From Octopus vulgaris (lineage: Eukaryota), in assembly GCA_951406725.2 (NCBI GenBank), contig OX597827.1, forward strand, positions 48,856,001 to 48,920,000: a DNA stretch of 64,000 nucleotides. Reading direction: 5' to 3'. A model generated the notes under the pieces. It made no database searches and was not told where the DNA came from. It saw only the letters and a program-made list of their open reading frames with translations. Shown here piece after piece: positions 8,926-51,649 of the stretch; positions within the stretch are counted from its first letter, which is position 1, and each line of letters opens with the position of its first letter. The position numbers were made by a program, and so were the translations under genes.

Positions 8926-9335
8926 ATATATATATATATATATATATATACATTCATGTACACATGTATGCACGTATAATTGCATATAGCCAGATGTATA
9001 GGTATATCAGAATGATTTTATAAAAAGTTATACATAGAAATAATTTAAACTTATGCTGAAAGATCGCCCTATACACTTCAGTTGTGTACACATGTATTAA
9101 ACTTTTACTAAGGTTGACAGTGACTTTGAAGTTTCGGCTTGTTCGCCACTGTTAGGCAGTCTCAGGAAGGTAAGTTCAAACTTTCGCTGTTAAGCTTTTC
9201 CTTGAAAACGTTTAAAATATGTATGCTTAGTCACCCTTATATAGATAGATAGATAGATTTATACATATAGTTGCTTGTAGAAATATATATATATATATAT
9301 ATACACAAACACACACGCCCACGTATATACACATA

Positions 9336-9380
<45 letters not shown>

Positions 9381-9381
9381 C

Positions 9382-9424
<43 letters not shown>

Positions 9425-9425
<1 letters not shown>

Positions 9426-9568
9426 GTGCAGGAGTGGGTATATGGTAAGAAGCTTGCTTCCCAACCACATGCGTAGCACCTTGGGTCGGTATCTTTTACT
9501 ATAGCCTCGGACCTACCAAAGCCTTGTGAGTGGATTTGGTAGATGTACACTGAAGGAAGCGCGTCGTC

Positions 9569-9570
<2 letters not shown>
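9425..9570 (+). mobile_element. SINE family C, 5' half
   Basis: ggagtgggtatatggtaagaagcttgcttcccaaccacatg...ccaaagccttgtgagtggatttggtaga; homologous to 20575, 22988 and 30018. Confidence 0.8.
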
Positions 9571-9607
<37 letters not shown>

Positions 9608-9622
9608 ATGTATATATATAAA

Positions 9623-11036
9623 TGTAAGGTCATCCCATAAGTTCTGTCCGAATTTTGAATAAAGAAAGTAATTGATCAGATATTATAATTAATTGAAATT
9701 TAATCATCAATGTTGTTGTTTGTTCCTTCTCGAGTCACGCCTGGCTCATAAGAGCCGGTCTGAGATTCGAAGCCGCGATCCCTCGACCGCGAGTCCGCTG
9801 CTCTAACCACAAGGCCGTGTGCCCTACAATCATCAATGTACTTTCCCTGATTATCTCTGACTTCCTTCCATTTATTTACAATCATTTTAATCCCATCAAT
9901 TTAAACTCTTTTGGTTTCAATGCGAAGAACTCGAAAATGTCAGTTCAGCCTCCTCCTGGCTTGCGAAAGTTATGTCTCCCAAATGATTCTGTAAACTACG
10001 AAACAATTGGTAGTCTGAAGGCGCAAAGTCGGAAGAATAAGGTGGATGAGGAATGTTTTCCCAACCAAGCTTTTCGATCTTCTATGATATGATCTTTGCA
10101 GTGTTGGAGCGCTCATTGTCCTGAGGAAACATTACTCCTATTCGATTCACTAAAGTGGGTCTTTTTTTCTTCGAAGCTTGGTTCAAACGCTCTAATTACT
10201 GACAGTAGACTTGAGCATCGATTGTTGCATTAGGTGGTAACAATTCAAAGTGAATTACTCCTTTGCAATCCCACCAGATAAAGAGAATAATCTTTTTCAC
10301 ATGAAGTTTCCTTCTCGGTTGTGGTTGAGCTTTTTCCCTTTTACCAAGCCACTTTACGACGTTTAACGTTTCGATAGCAGATTCATTTTCGTCACCAGTC
10401 ACATGTTTATCCAAAAAGGGTGAAATGAGTTCGCGAGAATGGAGAGAAGAGCAGATATTAACTCGAGATTTGCGGTTGCTTTCGGACAATTCATGAGGCA
10501 CCCATTTTCCAAGATTAGGAATCTTTCCAAGTTCTTGAAGATGACGATGAATAGTTGTATGGTTTGAACTAAGCTTTATTGCCAATTCTTCAACTGATAA
10601 TGCAGGATTTTCTTCAAGTAATGCCTCAAGGAGATTATCTTCAAAACTAAACTGGACGTCCTGTTCAATCTTCATCTTCAAGGCTGAAATCTCCACCTCT
10701 GAATTTTGCAAACCATCTTCTGAAAGTTCTTTCATTTAAACATTATTTCCCATAAACTGAGTGTATGTTTTGAGTTGCTTCGGCAGCAGAGTTTCCTTTT
10801 TTGTACACATAAAGCATTATGTGCCTCAAATGCTCTTTGGATACTTCCATATTAGAAAGTCTTTTAATCAAAGAAATTTTAATTGTATTATTCTGTAAAA
10901 TAATATTTAATTCGTTTAAATGTACAAAAATGCATAAAAATAATTTTTAATTCCATTAGCCATTCTGAAATACTATTAAATCTCATTCAATTTTAAAAAA
11001 GGTAAAATCGGTCAGAACTTATGGGATGACCTGATA
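9623..11036 (-). mobile_element. Mariner (Tc1/mariner) DNA transposon with pseudogenised transposase (~10850 to 9700)
   Basis: TIRs aggtcatcccataagttctg / cagaacttatgggatgacct; translation includes MEVSKEHLRHIMLY, WVPHEL, VTGDE, WWDCKGVIHFELL and WKEVRDNQGKYIDD; frameshifts and stops. Confidence 0.92.
9714..9827 (-). mobile_element. Very short head-B SINE inserted in the mariner 3' end
   Basis: tRNA-like head joined directly to an X-like terminus and (AAC)n tail; 12 bp TSD aatcatcaatgt at 9702-9713 and 9828-9839. Confidence 0.85.
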
Positions 11037-11352
11037 TATATATATATACATATATGGTTATCAGTAATAATATAGGGTGAAATTAATTAATTTGGAATAA
11101 TCATTAATTTCACCAAGTAGATTTCGGCATGTAAAAGCCTCATTCGAGGAAAGTTTAAGTAATACTAAGTAATTAAGTGTTTAGCAACGATTTGCCCCAC
11201 CACACACCGAAATTTAGAAATAGCAGTCAAAGAGTTATAGCTATTCTTTCTACTAAAAGGGAGATCTCAGTAAAACCACAGCACTTGAAAGGCAAACACA
11301 GACAGGCAAGAGAGGAAGAAATGACGGCAATCTATCATACAATTTTAAGTCA

Positions 11353-11443
11353 CCTACGGACGTACGTTTCGAAATTAAGTTTTAGGAAAGCATAAGAATT
11401 ATATAATTATGTCTTACCCAACTTCTTTTCTCATCAGCGTAGG
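11353..11443 (-). ncRNA. Type I hammerhead ribozyme motif (inverted copy)
   Basis: Reverse complement: cctacg CTGATGA [long stem II] GAAA cgtacg TC cgtagg. Confidence 0.85.
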
Positions 11444-11504
11444 ACACTACAATTATGAATAATCGAAATTTAATTTAATATACAATTATTCATAATTGTA
11501 GTGT

Positions 11505-11596
11505 CCTACGCTGATGAGAAAAAGAAGTTGGGTAAGACATAATTATATAATTCTTATGCTTTCCTAAAACTTAATTTCGAAACGTACGTCCGTAGG
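11505..11596 (+). ncRNA. Type I hammerhead ribozyme motif
   Basis: Stem I cctacg/cgtagg, core CTGATGA (11511-17) and GAAA (11579-82), palindromic stem III ACGTACGT, GUC cleavage triplet ending at 11590. Confidence 0.88.
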
Positions 11597-12094
11597 TGAC
11601 TTAAAATTGTATGATAGATTGCCGTCATTTCTTCCTCTCTTGCCTGTCTGTGTTTGCCTTTCAAGTGCTGTGGTTTTACTGAGATCTCCTTTTTAGTAGA
11701 AAGAATAGCTATAACTCTTTGACTGCTATTTCTAAATTTCGGTGTGTGGTGGGGCAAATCGTTGCTAAACACTTAATTACTTAGTATTACTTAAACTTTC
11801 CTCGAATGAGGCTTTTACATGCCGAAATCTACTTGGTGAAATTAATGATTATTCCAAATTAATTAATTTCACCCTATATTATTACTGATAACCATATTTC
11901 ATCCCAGTAAATGACCACAACATCTTGTCTTGGCTACACGCTGGTGGGAAGGGGTTGGTGACACAAACTTTCATTCACATTTTGAATTTGGTGATACTGG
12001 TAACGGCTTTAGCTCGCTCTGATACTGAGTTGAGATGATGCCTTCTAGTACCTCGAAATTTAATTTAATATACAATTATTCATAATTGTAGTGT

Positions 12095-12185
12095 CCTACG
12101 CTGACGAGAAAAGAAGTTGGGTAAGACATAATTATATAATTCTTATGCTTTCCTAAAACTTAATTTCGAAACGTACGTCCGTAGG
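12095..12185 (+). ncRNA. Type I hammerhead ribozyme motif
   Basis: Same fold with CTGACGA core (change at the variable N7 position); GUC ends at 12179. Confidence 0.88.
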
Positions 12186-12373
12186 TGACTTAAAATTGTA
12201 TGATAGATTGCCGTCATTTCTTCCTCTCTTGCCTGTCTGTGTTTGCCTTTCTAGTGCTGTGGTTTTACTGAGATCTCCCTTTTAGTAGAAAGAATAGCTA
12301 TAACTCTTTGACTGCTATTTCTAAATTTCGGTGTGTGGTGAGGCAAATCGTTGCTAAACCCTTAATTACTTAG

Positions 12374-12426
<53 letters not shown>

Positions 12427-12569
12427 GTATATATACATAAATATAAATGTATGTATGTATGCATGTATGCATGCATGTATGTATGTATGTATGTATGTAT
12501 GTATGTATGTATGTATGTATGTATGTATGTATGTATGTATGTATGTATGTATGAGTGTATGTACATGTA

Positions 12570-12765
12570 TGTCTGTATTTGTCCCTCCGCCATCGATTCA
12601 CAATCGATGTTGCTGTGATTACTCCCCATAACTTAGGGGTTCAGCAAAAGAGATCAATGGAATGAGAACTAGGCTTACAAAGGATAATTCTTGGGGGTGA
12701 TTTCTTCATTTAAAAAGGTGTTACTCCAGCATGGCTGCTGTCAAATGACTGAAACGAGGAAAAGA
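12570..12765 (+). mobile_element. SINE family C, 3' half
   Basis: ttgtccctcc...cataacttaggggttcagcaaaagaga...ctccagcatggctgctgtcaaatgactgaaac; matches the 3' halves at 20745-20928 and 30190-30393. Confidence 0.8.
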
Positions 12766-12820
12766 TAAATATGTGTGTGTGTATGAGTATATATATATAT
12801 ATATATATATAGATATAGAT

Positions 12821-12862
<42 letters not shown>

Positions 12863-13189
12863 GGAGAGAGACAGAGAGAGATTCTAATACATGTAATGAT
12901 TGTAATGTTTATATATATAAATATATAAGAATGTGTGTATGTGCGTGTGTGTATTATACATGCGTACATAGAATATAGTTATATTTATTCGGCTCAGCCA
13001 CGCGCGATTACTCAAGTTTCCTTTCTATACCATGCCACCGCTATATAGATCAGTTTTATATGGGAATATCCGCACACCATAAGCAATACTGTATGAAATA
13101 AACAGGATCTACATAAAACGGTTAACCAGTAAAAATGAAAAACGTGATCAAAGTGAAGAATAATGCTTTGCAAAGCTCAACCACGTGAG

Positions 13190-13860
13190 CTCTCTAAATT
13201 ATATGCTTGGAATAAAAACACATACGTTTTCCGCTTTAAGGAACTGGAGAGCTTTGAAATGGAAACTCTCAAAATGATCAGCTCATTATGATTTAAATTC
13301 CAGAGTAATAATTTCCAACACACAAAAATCTGATATCATGTCCATTAAGGACATTAAGAACAAAACCTACGCATTTTCATATGATACAAAAAAAATCTGT
13401 ACAAACTATACAAAGACATACTCTAAGCTCTTAATGAACAACATTACACAATAATACATGAAAGTTAAAAGAAGCATATAAGCTAATAGTAACTACGAAG
13501 CCAAATTAATGGTCAGGAAAAAAAAAAGAAAAATGTGTAGTGGTTACGAGGCAAACACGGGGAATACACAACACGTAAAGAGGACAATGAGAACTTCGCC
13601 ATAAACCCCATATACAGGCTTAATACAGCCTTTTAAGTAGGAGCTTCGGAAGGTTAGAAACATCTAATAAAGTACATTACTGATAAAATTAGAATTGACG
13701 ATAAACTGCGCTAATGGATTCGCATGCAAGCAGTAGAGAAATTTGTTCAAGCTGTTACCATTACAAACAAATGCCCATTCCCTAGGTAGATTTTGTTGAA
13801 TTCCAGCCTGTCAGTTTCTAAGCCCATCTTTAGCAAGGCTCTGAAATCTGAAATGACATA
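13190..13860 (+). pseudogene. Degraded Penelope-like RT N-terminal region (Naiad/Chlamys-like)
   Basis: Stitched across frameshifts: KELESFEMETLKMISSL*FK..NNFQ..SDIMSIK, EDNENFAINPIYRL/IQPFK*ELRKV, VDFVEFQP/SVSKPIFSKALK; resembles the remembered PLE motif KDHKxNFxxNPxCRLINPxKSELGKxSK...FDIxEFYPSI. Confidence 0.6.
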
Positions 13861-14659
13861 TTGTGACATTGCTCATGAGAATGTCGACATAACAATGTAT
13901 CCCTGCATGACTGAAATGTTTTTACGTTCCAGCTTTGCGAGGATGCTCTGTTTGATTGCACAGCGATTCGAAACGTGGTTGAAATATTCATTGTTGATAA
14001 CATAAGCTTAACTCTATTATTAACATCTTAAGCATGAACTCGATAGAAATGACATGCTCGTTATTTCTAAAAATGGAAGCAAATATACACACTCTAAATG
14101 GTAACCACTAATGAAAATGAAAATAAATGCTATGCAATCTGCTTGAGCAACACAAATACTCTCTACGTGCACTCTAAATTTAATATGAATTTCCGGTAAC
14201 CTTTTCCTGAAGGGAACAAATACTTCAAAATGTTTAACCTGTGACGTTTAAAACTATGTAGTGTACTGTGATTTTGTATGTATGTATGTATGTATGTATG
14301 TATGTATGTATGTATGTATGTGTGTGGGAGAGCACTGCCTGTCATCGCCACAGATGGAGGAAGCAGGTTAAAGAGGAGGTCGACACTTTTCATAGAGCAC
14401 ATATTCTGCATGAATAACTTAAGCGTGCTGCTCGAAAGCACACTGCTTGTGTAGTGAATGGGGAACGTTTGGTTTTTAATGTTTGCAGTCGTGTATGCTT
14501 GTCAAGAGCAGGGCTCATTAGCCACCAACGGGACCGCAAATGCAAAATATAAGTTAGTCCTAGAGCGCACCAATGTTCCTGCAGGTCAGCAACGGTCTTG
14601 CTAGGTCACAAGTAGACGGCCATCATGTATGTATGTATGTATGTATGTATGTATATATG

Positions 14660-17233: not shown

Positions 17234-17725
17234 ACGTTATATAATTAGGGTTCAGTAAAATAATTTACTTTACCACGCACCGAACTTTTAGAGCAGCCAG
17301 AAAATTTTAGCTATTTCCTCTACTATAAGAAAAGTCTCCCAGACAATGTATACTCAAAAGTAATTCACGTAAGTATAGAGGGAAAAATAACGAAAGATCA
17401 CACGTGCATCGATTACTTGAGAACGCCGTTTCTGGATTAGTTGGATATAGAGATCAACATTTCCGCCATCAGCCCGAGATTTCTTTAGGTTTAAATTTGA
17501 GAGCACTAAAAATCGAACATACCCGTCTGATATGAGCAATCCCAGACAAACCATCTTCGACCGCCAGTACTAACGAATTCAAAAAGTACGAATGAGGCTT
17601 TGTATCCTCCCTCGTCCACCCAAGTGAGTTATAGAGCAACAAGTCCCTACAGAGGGATCTGTAGATTACTATCAGGGAGAGAGAATTATATTGCCAATTT
17701 ATTATTGACAATATAATATATTGAC
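17225..17725 (-). mobile_element. Diverged relative of the 11052 family with decayed hammerhead (17416-17478)
   Basis: Shares ccac.caccgaa...agctatt..tctacta with 11198-11255; minus strand ctcggg CTGATGG ...stem II... GAAA cggcg TT ctcaag; (TA)n flanks. Confidence 0.6.
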
Positions 17726-18489: not shown

Positions 18490-18592
18490 TAAATAATATC
18501 TTTAATGGTTTTTAAAAAAAAACAACAATTATTTACTGGTAGATTTCGGCATGTAAATATAACCATTAACGGTAGGAACTTCTATAAAAGTT

Positions 18593-18659
<67 letters not shown>

Positions 18660-19015
18660 ATATAAATAAAAGAGGCAGGCAAGAGGTTGCTTAGCCACAT
18701 ACCGAAAAAAATAGAAATAGCAGTCAAAGACTGTTTATTTCTATTTTCTACATATGAGACTCCACATACGACATATCCCTGTAATTCACATATGCAAAAC
18801 AGAAGGAAGAAATAACGAAAACAAAGTCTAACGGTCATTTATGAACGCGTTTCTAGATTAGGAATATAATAAAATATATATTCCATGTCTTTCATCAGCG
18901 TAAACCTCCATTAAAATAGATTTATCAAATGCTAAGTACCTCCACTTCCCGATCAGGCGACATTATTATATTCCTAATCTAGAAACGCGTTCGTAAATGG
19001 CTGTTTTTTTTCGGT
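18490..19015 (-). mobile_element. Relative of the 11052 family with hammerhead (18838-18904) and short inverted copy
   Basis: Shares gtagatttcggcatgtaaa and tagaaatagcagtcaaaga with 11118-11235; minus strand tttacg CTGATGA ...GAAA cgcg TT cataaa; inverted partial copy ~18963-19000 keeps cgtaaa. Confidence 0.7.
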
Positions 19016-26242: not shown

Positions 26243-26775
<533 letters not shown>

Positions 26776-26784
26776 TTTTTTTTT

Positions 26785-27085
26785 ATTTATTATATAGAAG
26801 GAGCTTCTACAGGACTAGAACTGTTTCATTCAAGAGAAATCTTCAGGAAGCTAGTTAACAAGAATTGTATTGGCATTTATACATTTAGGCAGGTTTAAAG
26901 GGGTGTTGGTGGGGGACTTTTCGGGGGTAGGCATAGCGCAAAATATCATACTTGGGGGAGTGGTCAAGGAGTCAGTGTTAAATTAGATAGAAGAATAAAT
27001 AACAAAATAAAAAAATAAAAAAATCTATATATAAAAAAAAGGGGAATAGCGTTTTAGGTAAATAAGGAGATTCTCACTTATACCT
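26785..27085 (-). mobile_element. PLE-terminus-like element with hammerhead-like motif (26814-26855)
   Basis: Reverse complement: actag cttc CTGAAGA tttc tctt gaat GAAA cag TT ctagt; same family as the 35643-35776 palindrome. Confidence 0.55.
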
Positions 27086-35570: not shown

Positions 35571-35642
35571 TCGCGGGTTGATTCGGGGTTAACCACAGTA
35601 AGTAAGGTACTCAATACATAGCAGAGTAAATATATATATATA

Positions 35643-35773
35643 TATTTATTTTATAGAAGGAGCTTCTACAGGACTAGAAATGTTTCATTCAAAAGAAATC
35701 ATCAGGAAGCTTCCTGATGATTTCTTTTGAATGAAACAGTTCTAGTCCTGTAGTAGCTCCTTCTATAAAATAA

Positions 35774-35776
<3 letters not shown>
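35643..35776. repeat. Spacerless ~67 bp-arm palindrome containing hammerhead-like cores on both strands
   Basis: Centre gaag|cttc at 35709/35710; two mismatches between arms; ctgatga...gaaacagtt. Confidence 0.85.
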
Positions 35777-35819
<43 letters not shown>

Positions 35820-35821
<2 letters not shown>

Positions 35822-36025
35822 CAACAATTAAGGGTAAAATTAATTAGTTATTAATCAATTTCACCAAGCATTCAGTATGTAAAAGGACCATTTAAGGCGA
35901 ATTCAAAATATTACATTATATAAAAGGGCTTAGTAAAATAAATTACTTTGCCACATACTGAACTCATACTGAGTTCAGTATGTGGCAAAGTAATTTATTT
36001 TACTAAGCCCTTTTATATAATGTAA
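35820..36025. repeat. Terminus of an 11052-family relative ending in a perfect 56 bp-arm hairpin
   Basis: Arms 35911-35966 / 35970-36025, loop tac; agggtaaaattaattag...aatttcaccaag...atgtaaaagg resembles 11074-11140. Confidence 0.85.
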
Positions 36026-40289: not shown

Positions 40290-41286
40290 TTATAACCTTT
40301 TGTACGTTGAGCAACTTATAGATTTTAAAAATCTAATCAACAACATAAGCAATAATATTAAATTTACCATGGAATACAGTAAAACTCAACTACCATTGAA
40401 ACAGATATTCACTACAATCAAGCAGATTCTAAACAAAACTTACTGTTCTCGTCATGTCATTTCAAACACACGAAGAATAATATCCCATTTCACCTAGCAT
40501 GAAGAATCTGCACAAACGTCTCGAACCCTGAGATTCGTAATAAAAGACTCCAGGAACTAAAACAAGTACTACTTAAAATACAATAAGAATTAGTTTCAAT
40601 AGACAACGGAATAGAACGTGCCAAAATAATAAATATCGAAGAGCTACGAAAAACAAAAACACTCCTGATACATTCAATACTCTATCCTTTATTGCAACAC
40701 ACAACCAAGAAACACTGAGGTTTACAATATTATCCACCAGCACATCCCACTACTAAAACAAGACCCAAAGATGAAACAAGCATTTGAAATACATAAAATA
40801 ATGAAAAGTAAAAGACTATTAAAGTCTCTCAAAAAATTCCCCACGAGTTGTAAAATACCTTCCACAATTTCTACACTAACAGTCAAAAAGAGTGTCCGTC
40901 CCAATTACGGAGTCTGCATAAACCCTTTTGAAGACACAACATATAGATTCAAATTAGGACAGACTTTTACCGTAAAAAATCACTTTACATGTTCTTCAAG
41001 GAATTTAATATACGGTGTCATTTGTCTAGGATGTAATGAAGATTACATAGCTCAAACAAAGCTGACTCTAAGAAATAGACTGACCATTCACCGACAACAA
41101 ATACGAGGCCCCAGTACTTGACAGATTCCACGGGATGGACATATAGATCTATGTGCAAAAAATAAGTCCCCAAAACTCCAGGTTTTCCCATTCTACCTAT
41201 GTTCAGCGAATACCACAGATGAAGCACGAATTAGCAAAGAAAATACTTTCATACAAAAGAAAACACCAAGACTTAAGAAACGTTAG
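40290..41286 (+). pseudogene. Penelope-like element RT C-terminus + GIY-YIG endonuclease, degraded
   Basis: NNISNNIKFTMEYSKTQLP; SSCHFKHTKNNIPFHLA*RICT; FTCSSRNLIYGVICLGCNEDYIAQTKLTLRNRLTIHRQQIR; KENTFIQKKTPRL. Confidence 0.9.
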
Positions 41287-51313: not shown

Positions 51314-51649
51314 TGTACCTGTTCAGTTATGCTTGGGCATATTCGAACTCGTGAGAAAACCACTCACTGAATTTTGTCAAGAAAAGAATTTTTCATTGTA
51401 GATAAATCAGTTCGAAGCGCTCTCTAACAAGACTGATGGATGGATGCATTTCGGAGTGGTTATCTCCATTTTCCGTTATCTGATGCTGAAGAAGAGATAA
51501 CGACTTCGAAATGCATGTATCTAGCCGTCTGCTTAGAATACGATTCGAATTGATTTACCGTATACTTCTAAATCTTCTCTATGACAAAATACAATGATTG
51601 ATTTTGTCACAGCTTCCAATATGCCCCAAGCATATTTGAACTGGTAACA
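51314..51649. repeat. Inverted-repeat element with a hammerhead at its centre (51482-51521, +)
   Basis: ~150 bp diverged arms; plus arm gatg CTGAAGA agagataacgacttc GAAA tgca TG tatc; the inverted arm reads ggag ataacca ctcc GAAA tgca TC catc. Confidence 0.75.

Follow-up and report, generated by a model that had tools for sequence, protein, structure and literature searches.

We propose that the element at 11052 to 12376 of the window (the whole stretch of 64,000 nucleotides analysed here, positions 48,856,001 to 48,920,000 of the forward strand of Octopus vulgaris contig OX597827.1, assembly GCA_951406725.2) represents one insertion of a repeat unit that is present in many copies, encodes no protein and has a type I hammerhead motif, and that a unit-length circular RNA served as the template from which the reverse transcriptase-endonuclease of a Penelope-like element (PLE), probably one of the Neptune type, wrote it into a TA repeat. 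We put the probability of this reading at about 0.6. Taken by itself, membership in the retrozyme class, as a non-LTR retrozyme, is very probable, and our verdict is that the family is a new member of that known class. The element is of a known kind, its insertion footprints are unusually clear, and its value lies in the clean record left by the hundreds of insertions of a young family, the ends of which reveal how priming took place, and in the presence of intact candidate enzymes. The window element shows no sign of a host function.

Architecture of the insertion and its predicted ribozyme

The inverted and direct arms lie head to head with TA repeats on both sides (Table 1), and every part of the arrangement that a sequence-only reading had described, an inverted copy at 11052-11463 followed by about 1.5 direct units within TA repeats, is present. 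The same applies to the claimed period, which is 590 nt from start to start and 589 nt between predicted cleavage sites (GUC ends at 11590 and 12179). The two direct units are separated by 5 substitutions and 1 indel across 325 nt; since the first direct unit and the inverted copy have two of the substitutions in common, the copies do differ from one another, as had been stated, but not at independent sites throughout. The element had also been described as young; the window copy falls outside the youngest subfamily and differs at 74 positions from a unit of L296, one of that subfamily's loci.

Table 1. Coordinates of the insertion, its parts and its older relatives in the window
Feature	Position	Strand	Remarks
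Left (TA)n target	11034..11051	n/a	abuts end of mariner-like remnant
Inverted arm	11052..11463	-	412 nt; outer end is fixed site B (equivalent to 11897)
Hammerhead of inverted arm	11353..11443	-	predicted cleavage after 11359
Direct arm	11463..12376	+	914 nt, 1.55 units; outer end is fixed site A (12376)
Direct copies	11463-12052 and 12053-12376	+	
Hammerhead 1, type I	11505..11596	+	predicted cleavage after 11590
589-nt unit, cleavage site to cleavage site	11591..12179	+	predicted monomer or circle
Structured domain with sites A and B	11736..11897	+	best conserved with sister family
Unit segment present once in the window insertion	11898..12052	+	in every complete unit elsewhere; non-coding
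Hammerhead 2, type I (CUGACGA)	12095..12185	+	predicted cleavage after 12179
Right (TA)n/(ATGT)n target microsatellite	12377..12552	n/a	
Older diverged relative of unit	17237-17700	-	
Older diverged relative of unit	18537-18920	-	
Older diverged relative of unit	35824-36025		

All three window copies carry the core and stems I-III of the hammerhead, namely a 6-bp stem I, CUGAYGA, a 4-bp stem II with a long hairpin extension, GAAA, the palindromic CGUACG and GUC, with cores (CUGAUGA or CUGACGA) starting at 11511 (+; hammerhead 1, CUGAUGA), 12101 (+) and 11437 (-). The three intact type I cores were correctly recognised from the sequence, but the term "triple-hammerhead" misdescribes the design, which is one ribozyme copied three times. 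The suggested comparison with Rfam Hammerhead_1 (RF00163) gave a match at 12095-12185 with 25.6 bits (E 3.2e-4), under the gathering score of 34 because of the 56-nt insert in loop II; a wider scan of 9000-14500 missed the hammerhead. Since the long loop II places the ribozyme under the Rfam threshold, similar families may be under-counted. Further Rfam matches, to miRNAs and WsnRNA46, were rejected because they reflect the microsatellites and the central palindrome, and all lie below the gathering score.

In 15 hammerheads taken from this family and a sister family, 97.4% of cells are paired and 9 of 23 pairs show changes at both partners, while the loop of stem III reads either GUAC or GCGC, both of them palindromes; as the two families are related and their own sequences served to draw the structure, these figures are support and not a probability. 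Such compensatory changes relative to a sister family of ~70% identity support the assignment as a putative type I hammerhead. The palindromic stem III predicts that the ribozyme would cleave as a dimer, and a weak palindromic helix III with dimer cleavage is described in PMC4209133. A cofold of two hammerhead RNAs returned a generic intermolecular duplex, which does not bear on the active dimer. For Xenopus retrozyme dimers, eight of nine are reported as not cleaved and one as cleaved (bioRxiv 10.64898/2026.07.22.740005).

No stop-to-stop frame inside the element exceeds 72 aa, which bears out the earlier statement that the monomer holds no credible protein ORF; neither of the two frames tested had a Pfam match, Neptune proteins gave no tblastn match at the element, and units of the main and sister families are separated by many indels. 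A reverse transcriptase plus GIY-YIG ORF is absent from the element and from the sequence upstream of 70 insertion ends at site A (see below). The sequence-only reading had allowed for 11898-12052 being the end of a PLE ORF; this segment recurs in the unit at multi-unit loci, and because complete units elsewhere include it, it is not such an end. ARAGORN on three loci (L001, L296 and L244) and the Rfam scans found no tRNA-like head of the kind that a tRNA-derived SINE would carry, although a decayed head could escape both. The unit has a GC content of ~33%, and its predicted circular fold, in which stems I and II form, reaches -152.4 kcal/mol, compared with -118.9 +/- 7.2 for 40 shuffles (z -4.6). 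The structured domain at 11736..11897 is 72-85% conserved with the sister family per 40 columns and is likely the recognition region of the reverse transcriptase. Assembled contigs from runs unrecorded as RNA span the whole unit; they are uninformative on transcription, strand and ends because the mariner-like remnant beside the element is covered at a similar relative depth, as in a probable DNA run.

The window insertion sits in the TA run at the end of this remnant (9626-11035), which we take to be mariner-like from its motifs; its terminal inverted repeats match each other, and its minus strand carries a broken transposase (frames 10196-10735 and 9917-10081).

A dispersed family and the ends of its insertions

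A search of the octopus genome with the unit gave 2791 candidates, of which 40 were scored. An exact 22-nt ribozyme motif has 544 genome matches, and 643 exact matches were obtained for a 29-nt 3' end that continues into TA (site A), with 0 for each reversed control, so that the motif matches are not due to chance; the search for copy number proposed earlier thus uncovered several hundred scattered copies, a family and not a one-off. Complete units measure 581-591 nt, are arranged head to tail and lack an ORF. In the sister family (~70% identity) the unit is 577 nt long, and a 28-nt motif has 548 exact matches; the youngest subfamily, with 258 exact matches, has the core CCGAUGA (U4C). The U4C change is reported to lower in vitro activity considerably and still to support viroid infectivity (PMC3088659). 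A 23-nt loop variant occurs four times in the genome, three of them in the three copies of the window insertion.

The genome-wide loci support the proposal of a non-autonomous, hammerhead-bearing, retrozyme-like family with PLE-type insertion anatomy. The suggestion that it is possibly undescribed holds in that we found no report from cephalopods, but the class itself is already known, including its link to PLEs and units of this size. Among the publications listed for hammerheads in octopus or cephalopods, Penelope in octopus, rolling-circle and twin priming, most of them judged by their listing, none reports this family, and the text and a supplement of a 2026 repeat annotation of O. vulgaris contain neither "hammerhead" nor "ribozyme" (PMC13282606). 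The family may already be catalogued under another label.

Other hammerheads were noted in the window. An older relative at 18898 (-) keeps a recognisable hammerhead and a palindromic loop III. Copies of a further hammerhead family, the third, lie at 35627-35792 and 26732-26852 and end on (TA)n; this family is shorter, its stem III has the full 4 bp, and it forms a head-to-head pair at 35705/35714 and a single copy at 26846 (-). CUGANGA motifs inside other repeats at 51486 (+), 50108 (-) and 33401 (-) may be minimal hammerheads.

In 104 loci, comprising the best DNA matches and the first-listed motif matches with overlaps dropped, 76 of the 3' ends lie at site A, 24 at or near a second site, B, and 4 elsewhere; the flank is of TA type in 101. 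In window-equivalent positions, site A spans 11767-11793 (mode 11787) and site B 11865-11897 (modes 11890 and 11897), which places them 180-310 nt downstream of the cleavage site and ~105 nt apart, in stretches rich in A/U that adjoin predicted hairpins, within the region that the two families conserve best. By contrast with these fixed 3' ends, the 5' ends are random. For 70 among the 100 site-A ends listed, the direct arm has a median length of 150 nt, passes the cleavage site in 24 and exceeds one unit in 11. An inverted arm is present in 37 of these 70 loci and in 47 of 104 other loci.

The two arms of an insertion hardly ever share a site. Among 93 two-armed insertions (99 rows minus six duplicates), 75 combine A with B, one has A twice, one has B twice and 16 have one arm ending elsewhere, so where both ends fall at fixed sites, 75 of 77 use one of each. 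Single-armed insertions use A in 48 cases, B in 8 and another position in 1, from which independent choice predicts 24% A+B; the sample was partly picked for having an A end, which cannot explain the scarcity of A+A. The window insertion follows the same rule, with 914 nt copied from A and 412 nt from B. By analogy with the tail pattern of PLEs described in PMC8557442, one A arm joined to one B arm is a putative PLE "tail" signature. Extension at one end only from two internal start sites, 5' truncation, partial tandems and an inverted 5' copy, all of them PLE features, are present as well, and we are highly confident that priming was of the PLE type.

Candidate mobilisers and related elements

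Four PLE groups were recovered from the octopus genome by one GIY-YIG, two EN-protein and one RT-motif search, each with the 150 best candidates scored of thousands. Autonomous PLEs therefore co-occur with the unit: three Neptune-type families have many intact ORFs (781, 784-785 and 775-777 aa) and one family is decayed. The 781-aa protein matches GIY-YIG above the cut-off and RVT_1 just below it, and its C-x4-C-x2-C linker suggests the Neptune clade, going by the description in PMC8557442. Relative to L065, five of the six other 781-aa loci have body identities of 98-99.8% or nearly so, with two at ~92%. All three Neptune-type families end on (TA)n, two of them with a second end ~30 nt further on. 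An autonomous PLE sharing a terminus with the unit, for which a search had been proposed earlier, was absent from the 118 PLE loci compared with the unit profile, whose sole matches were five separate neighbouring insertions. Common target and insertion anatomy nevertheless make a Neptune element the somewhat favoured donor of the protein.

The octopus unit resembles metazoan non-LTR retrozymes, for which circular RNAs have been demonstrated in coral, mussel and axolotl (PMC7229834). A 2026 preprint, with no mollusc class sampled in its main text, reports units of 51-972 bp, derives them from the pseudo-LTRs (pLTRs) of PLEs and suggests that they are amplified locally in tandem (bioRxiv 10.64898/2026.07.22.740005). 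As these sources describe them, the likeness comprises a tandem, low-GC, ORF-free unit with one type I hammerhead, a strongly self-paired predicted circle, co-occurrence with PLEs and a size within the 51-972 bp range; a weak palindromic helix III is shared with axolotl HHR_Amex1. Tandem runs, defined as at least two consecutive hammerhead units, comprise two units in the window and up to ~10 elsewhere. In contrast to the descriptions given there, the octopus copies are mostly dispersed and partial, sit on (TA)n and show two fixed internal ends and head-to-head arms; the unit is longer than the 170-400-nt circles detected by northern blot, its own RNA being a predicted one, and it has a 56-nt loop II extension. 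Many Xenopus retrozymes match pLTRs, whereas the octopus unit matches no sampled PLE terminus.

With EN+ PLEs, the Neptune clade and the anole Poseidon element PAc (PMC8557442, PMC11167929), the family shares 5' truncation, partial tandems, an inverted 5' copy, two internal start sites for reverse transcription with extension at one end only, an AT-rich or microsatellite target and a hammerhead upstream of the start sites; its A+B pattern fits the two internal starts and the predicted dimer described for the anole element (PMC11167929). It departs from them in having a unit without an ORF, repeats without a body, and a site spacing of ~105 nt compared with 30-40 in PLEs, and its site choice shows UA/TA microhomology, whereas the PAc start site is not homologous to the cut DNA. 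[quoted passage not shown] Plant LTR retrozymes also yield a hammerhead-delimited non-coding circle of similar size (600-800 nt, per PMC7229834), the octopus circle being a predicted one, but they have a type III ribozyme, LTR, PBS and PPT, a 4-bp TSD and Gypsy mobilisation, unlike the type I, tandem and PLE-like octopus family.

PLEs are named as candidate mobilisers of retrozymes in PMC7229834, and the 2026 preprint regards the mechanism as still to be elucidated (bioRxiv 10.64898/2026.07.22.740005). Both the mobiliser of animal retrozymes and the circle as template are testable in octopus with three candidate proteins and one RNA, as intact, near-identical Neptune-type ORFs with the same target occur in the same genome and an in vitro PLE assay exists (PMC11167929).

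Several observations concern the PLEs themselves. An active Neptune-type element of ~4.7 kb with a 509-nt pLTR (L065:818-4518 on G000:C6; L061-L068) carries an upstream 479-aa ORF that overlaps the 781-aa RT-EN ORF; CCAAT- and CRE-like motifs recur in its 3' region, and it has a hammerhead-like motif with U3-A8. The 775-aa family (L343, L346, L351) has a terminal hammerhead-like motif CCGAAGA (U4C), which reads CUGAAGA in the older copy L034; the U4C change is common to this motif and the youngest retrozyme subfamily. The decayed family (L270, L290, L291) has the RT motif GLAMGSP and, in 3 of 4 copies read, a tRNA-looking stretch after the stop codon that neither ARAGORN nor Rfam called. A broken Neptune-type remnant at 40306-41274 (+) of the window is 45-50% identical to the 781-aa protein.

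Proposed template and mechanism

Evidence on the template comes in part from 22 youngest-subfamily loci picked for being multi-unit, with arms of up to 6.3 units. The two arms of L296 measure 2.4 and 2.6 units and, over 2869 bases, vary in 2 columns; at L294 no column varies over 1606 bases. Eight of the 22 loci carry alleles that are absent from the other 21 and fixed in all of their own units, and at L388, L391, L392 and L395 such private alleles are fixed in both arms. Units of one insertion have their subfamily alleles in common: at common polymorphic sites they share 213 non-majority alleles and show 13 differences (44 direct pairs, C8 array excluded). Near-uniform multi-unit arms with locus-private alleles would fit the prediction of rolling-circle copying. 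The spacing across the cleavage junction is exact in 48 of 48 family matches from 70 loci, a test from which 5 unrelated matches were dropped and which large deletions would escape. Inner arm ends coincide modulo the unit in 19 of 75 cases (8.0 expected, p 0.0002); for arms with different turn numbers the coincidence is weak and not significant (6 of 35, 3.1 expected, p 0.08). Five of 70 site-A arms stop 2-9 nt, in unit positions, after the cleavage site, which may point to the existence of cleaved RNA or to stalling of the reverse transcriptase at the ribozyme fold. At unit position 275-277, terminal and internal units had seemed to differ; this was an artefact of gap placement, and the position was masked.

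Private variants with a period of two or three units in the C8 array and at L011, L388, L389 and L390 indicate that duplication of DNA at the locus, or circles of several units, contributes to the multi-unit signal; L011 has a duplicated pair. The ~10-unit C8 array (L066, G000:C8:3133797-3139511) consists of two alternating private haplotypes, a dimeric higher-order repeat, and was dropped as rolling-circle evidence on account of its period-2 variants. On balance we lean towards the circle as template. The insertion would arise by transcription of a locus with more than one unit, after which two hammerheads would pair via the palindromic stem III and excise the 589-nt monomer; a host ligase would close the monomer, whose lone ribozyme would cut poorly once in the circle. 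A PLE protein dimer would then bind the structured domain and nick both strands of (TA)n; through UA/TA microhomology, one nick would prime at site A and its counterpart at site B, and each cDNA would run for a fraction of a turn to several turns before the two are joined head to head.

The strongest competitor, although we think it unlikely, accepts the same element and PLE twin priming but takes an uncleaved, linear read-through RNA as template, with arrays homogenised by local DNA duplication and the hammerhead marginal. It draws on the anole PLE, which in vitro mainly uses unprocessed RNA and does not need hammerhead cleavage (PMC11167929), and on the higher-order periodicity of several arrays. 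Arms with at least two cores are also more frequent with U4C (22 of 63) than with the canonical core (7 of 93), a comparison limited to the first 100 matches listed for each and confounded by age and motif length; the U4C core of the youngest subfamily could mean stabler circles or uncleaved linear precursors. Against a linear read-through template, differences between the units of an insertion are nearly all locus-private, so heterogeneity of a source array is not inherited, and fixed differences accumulate between loci; moreover, the youngest loci have the longest arms, which points to birth at full length, and the ribozyme fold has been maintained by compensatory change in two families. A cleaved linear monomer, on which the reverse transcriptase would jump from the 5' end to a 3' end and so produce multimers, is improbable: the five site-A insertions that stop just past the cleavage site are what run-off would give, but 24 of 70 pass that site and all 48 junctions are exactly spaced, while template jumps usually leave scars.

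We consider it slightly less probable still that the insertion is an ordinary 5'-truncated PLE whose unit is the pseudo-LTR of an autonomous element yet to be sampled. It has the anatomy of a PLE, 24 of the 57 retrozyme families in Xenopus have matches among catalogued transposable elements, nearly all of these being PLE termini (bioRxiv 10.64898/2026.07.22.740005), and the 118 PLE loci are top-scoring candidates only (150 scored per search). Yet a previous unit or the flank lies upstream of the hammerhead in all loci read, no Neptune-like ORF lies upstream in the 70 site-A loci, arrays reach ~10 units without any ORF, and the unit has no match in the 118 PLE loci; a pLTR ancestor of the unit is possible. 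An assembly artefact or a chance palindrome in a microsatellite, which the long inverted repeat adjoining simple repeats might bring to mind, has a negligible chance given hundreds of dispersed copies with the same anatomy, an inverted arm in 47 of 104 loci and three window copies that differ from each other.

Copying from a circle by a Neptune protein admits a bolder extension that we offer as tentative and rather doubtful. The family could be a lineage of viroid-like circular RNAs that mimic structure and thereby live as parasites on Neptune PLE proteins, instead of deriving from a pLTR, and its insertions could be a direct genomic record of twin-primed rolling-circle reverse transcription, in which one protein dimer would use both strands of the target as primers on the same circle, at two fixed sites, each copy running up to several turns, with the youngest subfamily's own ribozyme weakened by U4C. 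If this were true, the weakened ribozyme would stabilise the circle and give longer insertions.

Three composite junctions were noted in addition. At L139 (G000:C1:155326800 region) a site-A end is joined to a 5'-truncated Neptune ORF through 3 TA repeats, which may reflect a template switch or a later insertion, and at L350 a retrozyme-type 3' end lies directly upstream of a 5'-truncated Neptune ORF with ~20 TA repeats between them. At L234/L235 (G000:C1:43384573-43384842) a sister-family site-A end abuts, with no TA repeats in between, a copy of the third hammerhead family that is 5'-truncated, possibly by a template switch between different RNAs.
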